DNA of 10,407 nt, taken from IMG/VR virus record IMGVR_UViG_2563366840_000004; one strand, 5' to 3'. Source of the stretch: a virus. Its lineage: Duplodnaviria; Heunggongvirae; Uroviricota; Caudoviricetes. Under the pieces are notes generated by a model. That model was not told the origin of the DNA, ran no database searches, and was given only the letters and a program-made list of their open reading frames with translations. The translations under genes and the position numbers were made by a program. Positions 96-10,407 of the stretch are shown here, in pieces (position 1 is the stretch's first letter; the number at the start of each line of letters is the position of its first letter).

Positions 96-118
96 GGTGA
101 TGCTGCCAACTTACTGAT
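96..118. repeat. IS1 left terminal inverted repeat (IRL)
   Basis: GGTGATGCTGCCAACTTACTGAT at 96-118 is an imperfect inverted match to the reverse complement of 841-863. Confidence 0.9.
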
Positions 119-150
119 TTAGTGTATGATGGTGTTTTTGAGGTGCTCCA

Positions 151-426
151 GTGGCTTCTGTTTCTATCAGCTGTCCCTCCTGTTCAGCTACTGACGGGGT
201 GGTGCGTAACGGCAAAAGCACCGCCGGACATCAGCGCTATCTCTGCTCTCACTGCCGTAAAACATGGCAACTGCAGTTCACTTACACCGCTTCTCAACCC
301 GGTACGCACCAGAAAATCATTGATATGGCCATGAATGGCGTTGGATGCCGGGCAACAGCCCGCATTATGGGCGTTGGCCTCAACACGATTTTACGTCACT
401 TAAAAAACTCAGGCCGCAGTCGGTAA
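151..426 (+). CDS. insA: IS1 InsA (transposition inhibitor, N-terminal part of InsAB' transposase)
   Basis: 91-aa [40 protein letters not shown]... with a Cys-rich zinc-finger-like N-terminus; recognised as IS1 InsA. Confidence 0.95.
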
Positions 427-848
427 CCTCGCGCATACAGCCGGGCAGTGACGTCATCGTCTGCGCGGAAATGGACGAACAGTGGGGATACGTCGGGGCT
501 AAATCGCGCCAGCGCTGGCTGTTTTACGCGTATGACAGGCTCCGGAAGACGGTTGTTGCGCACGTATTCGGTGAACGCACTATGGCGACGCTGGGGCGTC
601 TTATGAGCCTGCTGTCACCCTTTGACGTGGTGATATGGATGACGGATGGCTGGCCGCTGTATGAATCCCGCCTGAAGGGAAAGCTGCACGTAATCAGCAA
701 GCGATATACGCAGCGAATTGAGCGGCATAACCTGAATCTGAGGCAGCACCTGGCACGGCTGGGACGGAAGTCGCTGTCGTTCTCAAAATCGGTGGAGCTG
801 CATGACAAAGTCATCGGGCATTATCTGAACATAAAACACTATCAATAA
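345..848 (+). CDS. insB: IS1 InsB frame (expressed as InsAB' transposase after -1 frameshift from insA)
   Basis: 167-aa ORF in the -1 frame relative to insA, overlapping the insA 3' end; the sequence ...[21 protein letters not shown]...HYLNIKHYQ is recognised as IS1 InsB. Confidence 0.9.
402..408 (+). promoter_or_regulatory. IS1 programmed -1 ribosomal frameshift motif (A6C)
   Basis: AAAAAAC at 402-408 within TTAAAAAACTC near the insA 3' end, where the insB frame is open; this is the known IS1 InsAB' frameshift site. Confidence 0.85.
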
Positions 849-863
849 GTTGGAGTCATTACC
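841..863. repeat. IS1 right terminal inverted repeat (IRR)
   Basis: ATCAATAAGTTGGAGTCATTACC at 841-863; its reverse complement GGTAATGACTCCAACTTATTGAT is an imperfect match to IRL. Confidence 0.9.
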
Positions 864-921
864 CCACCTACACTGATTACCCCCCAGACAACAATATTCC
901 TACTCAATGAACAAATGACTA

Positions 922-956
922 CTCGTAGAATCGGTTAACACACCAGATTCTACGAG
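922..956 (+). promoter_or_regulatory. Perfect 11-bp inverted repeat (CTCGTAGAATC-N13-GATTCTACGAG) in the leader of the first operon gene
   Basis: Seen directly: arms at 922-932 and 946-956, 13-nt loop containing the palindrome GTTAAC. The right arm overlaps the GAGG Shine-Dalgarno (954-957) of the ORF starting at 963. Confidence 0.5.
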
Positions 957-962
957 GTTTCA

Positions 963-8307: not shown

Positions 8308-9143
8308 TGCAGCGTTCCTGGTTTAATAACCGGCTTACATCAGCTAAGCAAAAGTCATTACTTTATAAATCATTGGCTGATTTGGTTCAGTCAATGATGG
8401 ACACCTTTGTTGACCCATGGTTGGAGCGAATTACCAACCGGAAGTCTATTTTCTCCATGAGCAAGGAGGATCTGGAGACTAGGACAAATGAACTTGGCCA
8501 GTTTTTTACTATCAGGACGTCGAATTCATCTTCCGTTCCGATGTTGTTACAACAGCGGTTTAATGAGATCCATTTTAAGGGTACTGAACGCCCTATAAAC
8601 CAGACAATTTATCGCGAATTTAACGGTATATCGGTTTTATGGGATCCCATATATGCTCCGGTGGACTTTGAACGTCATCCCTATGGCACGGTCCTGATTC
8701 CAGAAAGCACACTGGAAACCACCGGCGGCACATTCGGCGAGATGTTTCTGACTTCCAGAGGAATGATCAGTATTCCCATAAACGACCTGGCCCGGACAAT
8801 GGGTATTACTGGAACGATAGATCAGTCCGCAATTACAGAAGAAATTCTCAGAAAGTTTAATCAGTTCGTAAAGCCTCTACTGCCACTGCATATAGTGTTT
8901 GATGGGCTTACGCTCTATTTGTCGGTTGTTGTAAATGAACAGGCCGACATGATTACTTTGAATGAGATTTCTGATACCGAAAAAGCATTCTGCTGGTTTG
9001 AAACTTCGGATACAACTTCGCTTACTGAAGTTACGTCGATTAACGCCCCGATCACTGCAACGCCGGGCGGCACTATTGTGAAAGCAACGCCTACGTTTGA
9101 TCGCACCCGCGCAGATGATTTGCTGTTGGATAGCGATGCGTGA
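8307..9143 (+). CDS. Baseplate / tail-fibre attachment protein (GpI-like position), about 278 aa
   Basis: ATG 8307 overlaps the previous stop (TGATG) with GAGGAGG upstream. The ORF track starts at GTG 8304, which leaves too short an SD spacer. Functional call is positional. Confidence 0.6.
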   Translation: MQRSWFNNRLTSAKQKSLLYKSLADLVQSMMDTFVDPWLERITNRKSIFSMSKEDLETRTNELGQFFTIRTSNSSSVPMLLQQRFNEIHFKGTERPINQTIYREFNGISVLWDPIYAPVDFERHPYGTVLIPESTLETTGGTFGEMFLTSRGMISIPINDLARTMGITGTIDQSAITEEILRKFNQFVKPLLPLHIVFDGLTLYLSVVVNEQADMITLNEISDTEKAFCWFETSDTTSLTEVTSINAPITATPGGTIVKATPTFDRTRADDLLLDSDA

Positions 9144-9146
9144 CAA

Positions 9147-9171
9147 TCACCCCGTCCGCAGGGCGGGGTGA
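9147..9171 (+). terminator. GC-rich stem-loop (11-bp stem, 3-nt loop) in the intergenic region; candidate intrinsic terminator/attenuator or RNA stability element
   Basis: TCACCCCGTCC-GCA-GGGCGGGGTGA, with one G.U pair in the RNA stem, followed on the + strand by a moderately U-rich tract (CAAGUUACUUAUCUUAC). Flanked by a GTGACAA direct repeat at 9140-9146 and 9168-9174. Confidence 0.45.
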
Positions 9172-9221
9172 CAAGTTACTTATCTTACAATGAGGCTTCA
9201 CAACATTGATTAGGGAAAATC

Positions 9222-9656
9222 ATGTCTGACGTCTCAACAAACCTCTATAAGAGTCAGTTGTTGGACTATTACTATCAGCGGCGCGCTGAATCGTCCATTA
9301 ACAAAGGCTCTCGATTTTTAATCAGCAAGGCCGTTTTTGGTACCAGTTCACTGGTTACTAAGAAAGGAGATGGCACTTATGAGATTGGAGAACTGCCTAA
9401 GGCTTTCGATCTGGCAGAACTGACCAGTCAATTTTGCACCATCAACCTCGTCCCAACCTACTCAGGCGGGATAATTACTGTCCGAATGGACCTTGATCAA
9501 AGTCAGTTGCAGGAAGGGAAAAACTACCCATTCAACACTCTGGTTGTTCTGGATAACGAGAATAAGCCAATCGCCATTATTTGTGTCCAGGAAGACTCGC
9601 TGTATGTGGGCAAAACATATACCGCAGTTATGGCCATAAACTCGACTACAGCATAA
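9222..9656 (+). CDS. Small tail-fibre-associated protein (R-like position), 144 aa
   Basis: ATG 9222 with AGGGA upstream; its stop overlaps the RBS (TAAGGA) of the tail-fibre gene. A small gene immediately before the tail-fibre gene, as for gene R in the P1 and Mu R-S-U operons (from memory). Confidence 0.65.
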   Translation: MSDVSTNLYKSQLLDYYYQRRAESSINKGSRFLISKAVFGTSSLVTKKGDGTYEIGELPKAFDLAELTSQFCTINLVPTYSGGIITVRMDLDQSQLQEGKNYPFNTLVVLDNENKPIAIICVQEDSLYVGKTYTAVMAINSTTA

Positions 9657-9667
9657 GGATATGCTTG

Positions 9668-10407
9668 ATGAATGACGTTACAGTTGTTACATCGGTTACT
9701 TACCCATCACCCGAGTCGTTGGCTCTGGTGGCTGATGTGCAATACCACGAACCATATCTGTCAGCCGCTCTAAACCGAAAATTCAGGGGAATTGTTGACC
9801 CGGGATTTTATGCTGGTTTCTTGCCTAAGCCTGGCGGTGGGATGAACCTGTTAATCACCTCAGTGGATGGAGATAAAACCGCTGGCGCGGCGTCAGTGGA
9901 TATTGGTGAATTCTACCAGGTAACTATTCAGCATCGTAAGGATATCTCTCTTGCACTTAACGCAGGCAAGAAATATGCAATTGTGCTGAAGGGAAGATAC
10001 CTTCTTGGAGAAGATACCTATCAGGTGAATACCGCGTCACATATTCATGCAGCTGAATTTGTTGCCAGAACCTATACCGATTCATATCAGTTAGGTGATG
10101 GGGAACTGCTGGTTTGTACGGTGAATATCCCTGCTGGCGTATCTACCATTACTCAAGAGATGATTGATACATCCGAGCGTATCAACCGCACGATCGGCAT
10201 TGATATTTCAGACTCTGTAACCAGTACCAGAAGTGATGTTGCTGCGAGTTCGCTGGCAGTTAAAAAAGCCTACGATCTGGCGAAAAGCAAGTATACGGCG
10301 CAGGATGCAAGCACAACGCAAAAGGGATTAGTTCAGCTCAGTAGTGCCACTAACAGCACGTCTGAAGTGCTGGCCGCCACACCGAAAGCTGTCAAGGCTG
10401 CATATGA
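9668..10407 (+). CDS. S: Tail fibre protein, N-terminal constant part (3' end beyond window)
   Basis: ATG 9668, open to the window end. The translation ends ...KKAYDLAKSKYTAQDASTTQKGLVQLSSATNSTSEVLAATPKAVKAAY, the conserved collar motif of P2 H / Mu S / P1 S / lambdoid Stf tail fibres. The symbol S assumes P1/Mu-type context. Confidence 0.85.
   Translation, partial: MNDVTVVTSVTYPSPESLALVADVQYHEPYLSAALNRKFRGIVDPGFYAGFLPKPGGGMNLLITSVDGDKTAGAASVDIGEFYQVTIQHRKDISLALNAGKKYAIVLKGRYLLGEDTYQVNTASHIHAAEFVARTYTDSYQLGDGELLVCTVNIPAGVSTITQEMIDTSERINRTIGIDISDSVTSTRSDVAASSLAVKKAYDLAKSKYTAQDASTTQKGLVQLSSATNSTSEVLAATPKAVKAAY

Follow-up and report, generated by a model that had tools for sequence, protein, structure and literature searches.

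The window analysed in this work is the whole 10,407-bp stretch of the IMG/VR virus record IMGVR_UViG_2563366840_000004. A six-frame listing of open reading frames (ORFs) and direct reading of the sequence showed an open frame without a start codon (1-95), an IS1 element (96-863), a 99-bp spacer (864-962) and nine genes on the same strand (963-10407); all coordinates refer to the plus strand. Positions 1-95 hold an internal fragment of yigE ('yigE; phosphodiester glycosidase family; frame 3, …AWGTLHALLADINSQGQVQMAMNGGIYDE). The IS1 is a complete copy of the IS1A type, recognized by its repeats, Pfam matches and sequence identity, and forms the right-hand arm of a composite unit. The spacer is of the P1 type, contains the late promoter LPsit and is identical to AF234172 46675-46577. 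From the sequence comparisons, it is very probable that a non-resident IS1 belonging to a corA-carrying unit here adjoins an intact late operon of the P1 type, at the border of the sim (superimmunity) region, an arrangement common to all three routes by which we consider that the junction could have arisen.

A megablast search of phage records aligned positions 864-10399 with phage P1 (AF234172, NC_005856) at 97.3% nucleotide identity and in the same gene order, and P7, RCS47, JL22, SJ46 and other P1-like phages were 95-98% identical to the window. The P1 annotation beneath the match lists LPsit, pmgC, tub, pmgB, sit, pmgA, bplA, 16, LPs, R and S, and the window shares with P1 its gene order, spacing and both late promoters. 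The nine late proteins are 95.1-100% identical to their P1 counterparts, and the Pfam and PHROG assignments agree. Most of the window is contained in 18 phage records, all of them P1, P7 or P1-like phages; the other phage matches listed are partial P1 deposits, one weak match to a Cronobacter phage, or IS1 only. Several IncY phage-plasmids in PLSDB (among them CP088508.1, NZ_LR882977.1 and NZ_CP128256.1) match positions 864-10407 at 99.98-100% identity; the tail module is already in the public databases base for base and is textbook P1. By sequence, 864-10407 is the late tail operon of a P1-type (Punavirus, IncY-type) phage-plasmid, the phage-plasmid class being read from the tail genes, as repA (IncY or p0111), par and the lytic repL fall outside the 10.4-kb window. 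The 95 bp of left flank are compatible with a plasmid, a cointegrate or a chromosome as carrier. An earlier note on this DNA, made from the sequence alone, had proposed a P1-type tail module rather than a chromosomal lambdoid or P2-like prophage, and the nucleotide identity, the gene order and the protein comparisons with P1 bear it out.

The operon opens with pmgC (963-1529), which encodes a putative morphogenetic protein of 188 amino acids (aa; 98.9% aa identity to P1 PmgC; PHROG 1851 at 2e-102), followed by tub (1540-2151), for the major tail tube protein (203 aa; 99.5% to P1 Tub; PHROG 1842, tail tube), and pmgB (2166-3047), for a second putative morphogenetic protein (293 aa; 99.0% to P1 PmgB; PHROG 1854). 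PmgB gave a weak T4 baseplate-like match, with a Pfam T4_baseplate score below the cut-off. The 1130-aa tape-measure/structural injection transglycosylase is encoded by sit (3129-6521; 96.4% to P1 Sit; PHROG 2533 over residues 1-1130) and has a Pfam SLT domain at residues 748-857 (E = 9e-27), which confirms the SLT-containing protein of about 1130 aa reported in the earlier note. Downstream lie pmgA (6521-6877), for a third putative morphogenetic protein (118 aa; 100% to P1 PmgA), bplA (6874-8307), for a baseplate wedge protein of the gp6/Baseplate_J-like type (477 aa; 99.6% to P1 BplA; Pfam Gp6-like_1st and Baseplate_J; PHROG 1369), and gene 16 (8307-9143), for a baseplate or tail-tube structural protein (278 aa; 97.1% to P1 gp16; PHROG 2015). 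Many RefSeq plasmid annotations name the BplA homologue ‘bleomycin hydrolase’; as Pfam and PHROG indicate a gp6/Baseplate_J-type baseplate wedge, this name looks like a propagated annotation error. A GC-rich hairpin and then the promoter LPs, located by folding and by transfer of the P1 annotation (9147-9191), separate gene 16 from R (9222-9656), for a tail-fibre structure/assembly protein (144 aa; 98.6% to P1 gpR; PHROG 2032), and S (9668-10407), of which the window holds the constant N-terminal part of the tail fibre before the gene runs off the end (246 aa; 95.1% to the P1 S N-terminus; Pfam Phage_fiber_2 repeats). The R-like/S fibre pair thus lies 8.8 kb past the end of IS1, at the distance previously noted. 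None of the nine late proteins contains an internal stop codon.

The IS1 copy is 768 bp long and, as the earlier note had recognized, it is the one complete IS1 of the window. Its left and right inverted repeats (IRL, 96-118, GGTGATGCTGCCAACTTACTGAT; IRR, 841-863, reverse complement GGTAATGACTCCAACTTATTGAT) match at 18 of 23 positions. The reading frame insA (151-426) encodes Zn_ribbon_InsA and HTH_Tnp_IS1 domains, the insB frame (345-848) matches DDE_Tnp_IS1 at 2e-78, and the A6C frameshift motif of IS1 is found at 402-408. Copies of IS1A in Escherichia coli are 100% identical to it, and the resident IS1 of P1 is 99.2% identical. The expectation that the IS1 of the window would correspond to this resident copy, taken to lie upstream of sit, was mistaken. 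In P1 (AF234172/NC_005856) the resident IS1 occupies 22626-23393, within the arrangement ssb-isaA-IS1-isaB-hxr, and pmgC begins at 46576, from where the operon runs towards lower coordinates as far as S (37841-34878); the map therefore places the resident IS1 about 23 kb from pmgC, past the C-segment/tail-fibre, cin, lyd and dar genes. The genes that P1 carries just before pmgC are simC, simB and simA and those of immI (c4, icd and ant), and the same holds for CP088508.1, whereas the window has IS1 and 'yigE at this place. Unlike the window, the IncY plasmids that match it in this way have simB and simC directly upstream of pmgC and no IS1 there. The IS1 of the window is, by its position and flanks, a different copy from the P1 resident IS1, and correcting the assumed map lets the junction be seen as a rearrangement. 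No 9-bp direct repeat was found across the single IS1 of the window (left TATGATGAA, right CCACCTACA), which is expected if the IS1 is the arm of a composite or if its flank was rearranged.

Positions 1-95 had no match in the phage collection. Over all 95 bp they are 100% identical to the yigE fragment that adjoins IS1 in 57 plasmids and many E. coli chromosomes, and every annotated case examined has the arrangement IS1(-)/corA/ysgD/'yigE/IS1(+), 3,242 bp in length. Window positions 1-864 are colinear with, and 100% identical to, the right end of this unit in a chromosomal island (L008, 6001-6864; complete copy at 3622-6863). Three further records have the same right arm and interior as the window at 99.6-99.9% identity (the plasmids L002, with the copy at 9622-12863, and L003; and L022, with the copy at 900-4120), and the unit is widespread in E. 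coli and Salmonella plasmids, chromosomal islands and prophage contigs. Two of the four complete copies examined are bracketed by perfect 9-bp target duplications: CATGACAGC in L008 and GTCATATGG in L002 (CP034659.1). In L002, the flanks map to P1-locus positions …4931 and 4923…, in simB, with an overlap of 9 bp, which shows that the unit transposed as a whole into a P1-like element. The copies in L003 and L022 have no target duplication, evidence of later rearrangement. Taken together, the sequence evidence identifies IS1-corA-ysgD-'yigE-IS1 as a unit that acts as a composite transposon and window positions 1-863 as its right end.

A close relative of this arrangement is NZ_CP034659.1 (E. coli ATCC 98082; 454 kb; typed IncHI1B and IncY), in which the same composite stands by the same P1-like late operon in the same orientation as in the window. 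In CP034659.1, the composite lies in simB, with its GTCATATGG duplication intact, 1,069 bp to the left of the window junction, and simC is therefore retained. A literature search found no published name for the corA transposon, corA being mentioned only as variable cargo of IncHI1 plasmids (bioRxiv 10.1101/334409). Tn9 (IS1-cat-IS1) on P1Cm is an IS1 composite transposon carried by a P1-type element; as in the corA unit, two IS1 copies bracket a captured gene and 9-bp target duplications are made. The cargo differs, being a resistance gene in Tn9 and chromosomal corA-ysgD-'yigE in the unit described here, and so does the site, which is the resident-IS1 locus for Tn9 and the sim region for the window.

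At the right-hand side of the unit, the outer end of IS1 joins P1-type sequence at the equivalent of AF234172 46675 (L001 6001). This point lies 50 bp before the -22 box of LPsit and, relative to the place in simB where the composite inserted in CP034659.1, 1,069 bp to the right. Here the sim region, which is dispensable and hypervariable, gives way to the essential late operon. In a CRISPR interference (CRISPRi) mapping of P1, simA, simB, simC, c4, icd and ant were non-essential, whereas pmgC, tub, pmgB, sit, pmgA, bplA, 16, R and S were essential (PMC10695390), and P1-like phage-plasmids have eight hypervariable regions, simABC among them (PMC9603915). The junction thus falls at a site tolerant of insertions and deletions. 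P7-type elements have YfjT-like and phytase-like genes before pmgC and become similar to the window at position 911, two bases before the LPsit -22 box, whereas P1-type elements with sim match from 864. Since the window keeps 47 bp of the P1-type-specific spacer (864-910), its ancestor was a sim-type element. Position 911 marks a recombination boundary of the hypervariable region very precisely.

The window-type right junction, defined as GGAGTCATTACC joined to CCACCTACACTG, was searched for in other collections. Three contigs contain the IS1 end followed by CCACCTACACTG…: two from metagenomes (L006, 100% identical to the window over 2.1 kb, and L007, 99.99% over 9.5 kb) and one from IMG/VR (L019, 99.98% over 9.6 kb). 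All three end 40-98 bp inside IS1, and therefore they confirm the presence of IS1 at this site, not its link to 'yigE. The exact junction is absent from INPHARED, PLSDB, RefSeq complete E. coli genomes and GTDB representative genomes, and no record colinear with 1-10407 was found among INPHARED phages, PLSDB or RefSeq complete E. coli genomes. Three plasmids considered as colinear records were rejected: pEcQE11-421-2 has an IS1 inside sit; pSZL38.1 has it at the resident ssb-side locus after a truncated S, with the C-segment deleted; and the ETEC1720 plasmid has it about 64 bp further upstream, beside a truncated ant. IS1-associated rearrangements near this site are common in relatives, beside the truncated ant, in sit and at the resident locus.

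Three routes to the junction were compared. In the route we prefer (a), which we hold tentatively and at somewhat below an even chance, the composite would have inserted into simB, as it is found intact in CP034659.1, and an IS1 adjacent deletion proceeding from the right arm would then have removed 1,069 bp, comprising what was left of simB, the whole of simC and the predicted sigma-70 promoters of pmgC. Independent transposition of the composite into the simC-pmgC spacer (b) appears unlikely, and homologous recombination between IS1 copies with another replicon or the chromosome (c) is also unlikely, if slightly less so. The routes predict different junctions. The left junction of the simB type, AATATTATCGTCATATGG joined to GGTAATGACTCC, was found in two finished plasmids and in four IMG/VR contigs, each of which has a P1-like backbone that is 99.5-99.9% identical to CP088508.1; no IMG/VR contig has the simB-type right junction. 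An independent insertion at the window site would be expected to give a left junction of …CATTCCACCTACA with IS1, with …ATCCCTCATTCCACCTACA beyond the composite and a 9-bp duplication. No left junction predicted for an independent or solitary-IS1 insertion was found in IMG/VR or the GTDB representatives, with either IS1 orientation and a slack of a few bases around the 9-bp duplication. These junction-type counts lean towards the insertion in simB followed by adjacent deletion.

Several observations weigh against this reading of the window and its junction. The left flank in the window amounts to 95 bp, with corA and the left IS1 lying beyond its start and supplied by identity to other records; as this flank is the interior of the transposon, the window offers no target duplication to check. 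No sample was found with both a simB-type left junction and a window-type right junction, and the contig counts behind the deletion route are small and incomplete. CP061756.1 has the simB-type left junction and lacks any IS1 right junction, its right IS1 having been removed by an IS26 truncation. The backbone of the window differs by about 2% from that of CP034659.1 over the tail genes, which means that CP034659.1 is not its direct ancestor. Moreover, the IS1 of the window differs at three positions from the right IS1 of CP034659.1, and is identical to the chromosomal copy in L008.

The identity to the L008 copy is among the points that favour another explanation, in which a solitary IS1 first inserted 50 bp upstream of LPsit and homologous recombination with an IS1 of the corA unit, on a chromosome or another plasmid, then fused two replicons or inverted a segment, so that the window would be the junction of a cointegrate or of an integration. 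Integration by way of IS1 homology is known for P1 and P7, 'yigE-IS1 junctions are common on E. coli chromosomes and large plasmids, and both the IS1 and its left flank are 100% identical to the chromosomal copy in L008. Cointegrates typed as P1-like and IncHI1B exist (CP034659.1), and a P1-like module occurs on a 5.5-Mb chromosome record (L009). However, neither IMG/VR nor the GTDB representative genomes contain the reciprocal left junction that a solitary IS1 would have produced, and no PLSDB or RefSeq complete E. coli record has an IS1 at this exact site. We therefore regard this explanation as unlikely, though far from negligible. An assembly chimera, in which two IS1 copies were collapsed and a 'yigE-IS1 end was falsely joined to an IS1-P1-like end, seems highly improbable. 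E. coli genomes can hold up to dozens of IS1 copies, and none of the three independent contigs with the right junction, all of which break inside IS1, confirms the link to 'yigE; in the window itself, however, the IS1 is complete and has both its flanks, and two finished plasmids show a physical link between the same composite and P1-like sim DNA, which makes the association biologically plausible.

Two further explanations, both raised by the earlier note, carry practically no weight against the main reading of the window. The window would be simply colinear with P1 if its IS1 were the resident copy in its native position upstream of sit. P1 does carry one IS1, nearly identical to that of the window, but it lies at 22626-23393, between isaA and isaB and far from pmgC; before pmgC, the 100%-identical IncY plasmids as well as P1 and P7 have sim genes or other cargo and not IS1; and the left flank of the IS1 in the window is 'yigE, not isaA or isaB. 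The chance that the window is unrearranged P1 is thus vanishingly small. Even less can be said for a prophage of some myovirus other than P1 (Mu-like, P2-like or lambdoid), with an SLT protein and fibre repeats in common with P1, as the source of the structural genes; we assign no probability to it. Although Phage_fiber_2 repeats and S/U-type fibres are common to Mu and other phages, every gene in 864-10399 is colinear with P1 at 97% nucleotide identity. Best matches to non-P1 phages, which were to speak against a P1-type element, did not appear, the phage records with most of the window being P1, P7 and P1-like phages. The comparison with P1, P7 and phage-plasmids suggested in the earlier note upheld the order of the late operon and the similarity of Sit and S, but not the synteny of the IS1 flank, which is 'yigE and not P1 sequence.

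If the preferred route is correct, the window would represent a circulating P1-like lineage in which corA, a transposon-borne gene for a Mg2+/Co2+ channel, replaced part of the superimmunity locus, with simB disrupted and simC deleted by IS1 adjacent deletion. We put this forward as a possibility that is rather less than even. Should it be true, a metal-ion transporter would be carried and transduced by an infectious phage-plasmid that no longer excludes other P1 phages through Sim; the recurrence of the junction in three independent metagenome contigs would then mark a stable, transmissible variant and not a one-off event. Loss of Sim-type superimmunity should follow from the deletion of simC. 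The late genes, LPsit and LPs are all intact as read from the DNA, and with the promoters and all coding sequences preserved, tail assembly should be normal. In other respects the window is a rearranged variant of a known element, made of known parts by known mechanisms, and matters little beyond bookkeeping. The modest point is that the hypervariable sim region is very probably occupied by an IS1 composite with chromosomal corA, which provides an example of non-resistance cargo for phage-plasmids as gene shuttles, and that IS1 reshapes a P1-like element away from the classical resident-IS1 locus.

Two differences from P1 concern the late proteins S and Sit. The earlier note had suggested that differences in the gene content of 963-3047 or in the fibre sequence would mark a variant P1-like element; the former region contains pmgC, tub and pmgB exactly as in P1, whereas the S gene of P1 diverges from the window after 10357, inside the a1 repeat of P1. 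The other difference is in Sit, which has 1140 aa in P1 and 1130 aa in the window owing to a 30-bp (10-aa) deletion in the SLT domain (window ~5464-5472, residues ~779-781), in a loop right after the catalytic Glu-Ser (ES) motif. This is the only length difference from P1 among the nine proteins. Sit proteins of 1100, 1116, 1130 and 1140 aa occur among P1-like elements, the 1130-aa form being common in P1-like plasmids, and we take the shorter form of the window to have the more usual SLT spacing (ES…GALGMFQ). Identity to P1 is 98.3% over 864-5464 and 96.6% over 5472-10357, the latter interval including the genes past sit. The 1130-aa Sit is shared with the IncY plasmids pE16EC0930-2 (CP088508.1), NZ_LR882977.1 and NZ_CP128256.1, as is the start of a 300-bp tandem repeat array in S. 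The last 75 bp of the window (10333-10407) form the beginning of this repeat, which is present in 4.3 copies with 99% identity in CP088508.1 (L005, 15470-16760). P1 has another repeat set (a0, a1, b1 and b2) at the same place in S, and fibre length therefore varies by whole 100-aa modules between lineages.

In scans of the window for general signals, no Rfam RNA families were found, internal repeats were restricted to short matches at chance level, and the counts of sigma-70 promoters and terminators were not above the shuffled expectation. Coordinates transferred from the P1 annotation place the -22 box of LPsit at 913-921 and its -10 element TAGAAT at 926-931, and the -22 box of LPs at 9173-9181 (AAGTTACTT) and its -10 element TACAAT at 9186-9191. 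The LPs region is conserved and the LPsit spacer unchanged with respect to P1, both at the level of sequence conservation. As in P1, two transcription units would be expected late in lytic growth from these Lpa-dependent promoters, one running from LPsit through pmgC, tub, pmgB, sit, pmgA, bplA and 16, and the other from LPs through R and the N-terminal part of S. Their products would be the tail tube (Tub), a tape measure with a peptidoglycan-cutting SLT domain (Sit), baseplate proteins (BplA and gp16) and tail fibres (R and S).

Both promoters are accompanied by predicted hairpins. The hairpin 922-935/942-956 (-21.2 kcal/mol, z = -6.0) holds the LPsit -10 hexamer in its 5′ arm and the pmgC Shine-Dalgarno sequence GAGG (953-956) in its 3′ arm. 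Its sequence is the same in P1, and it has no annotation in the P1 record region that was retrieved. Transcripts from LPsit would start in the hairpin loop and leave the ribosome-binding site of pmgC free, whereas read-through transcripts from upstream (from the sim promoters or, here, from IS1) would carry both arms and hide this site. The hairpin may thus insulate the late operon from early transcription. The hairpin 9147-9170 (-25.5 kcal/mol, z = -5.6) is GC-rich, has no T-run and follows the stop codon of gene 16 directly, ending 2 bp short of the -22 box of LPs. A possible role is that of a terminator or insulator separating the sit operon from the R-S operon.

Two observations on related records were made in addition. 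The 5.5-Mb chromosome record L009 (CP178336.1) contains, at 1-20567, a complete P1-like block of immI, repL and the late operon, about 1.7 kb from called genes of the PrpD-family and acyl-CoA synthetase (AMP-binding) types. No IS1 was detected in 20 kb of this record, and the block may result from chromosomal integration of a P1-like element or from an assembly join. The plasmids pEcQE11-421-2 and pSZL38.1, both P1-like phage-plasmids, are typed as ‘IncHI1B’ by MOB-suite in PLSDB. This typing may reflect a repA of the p0111 type and not a true IncHI1B backbone, and if so, it would affect how the IncHI1B label of CP034659.1 is to be read.

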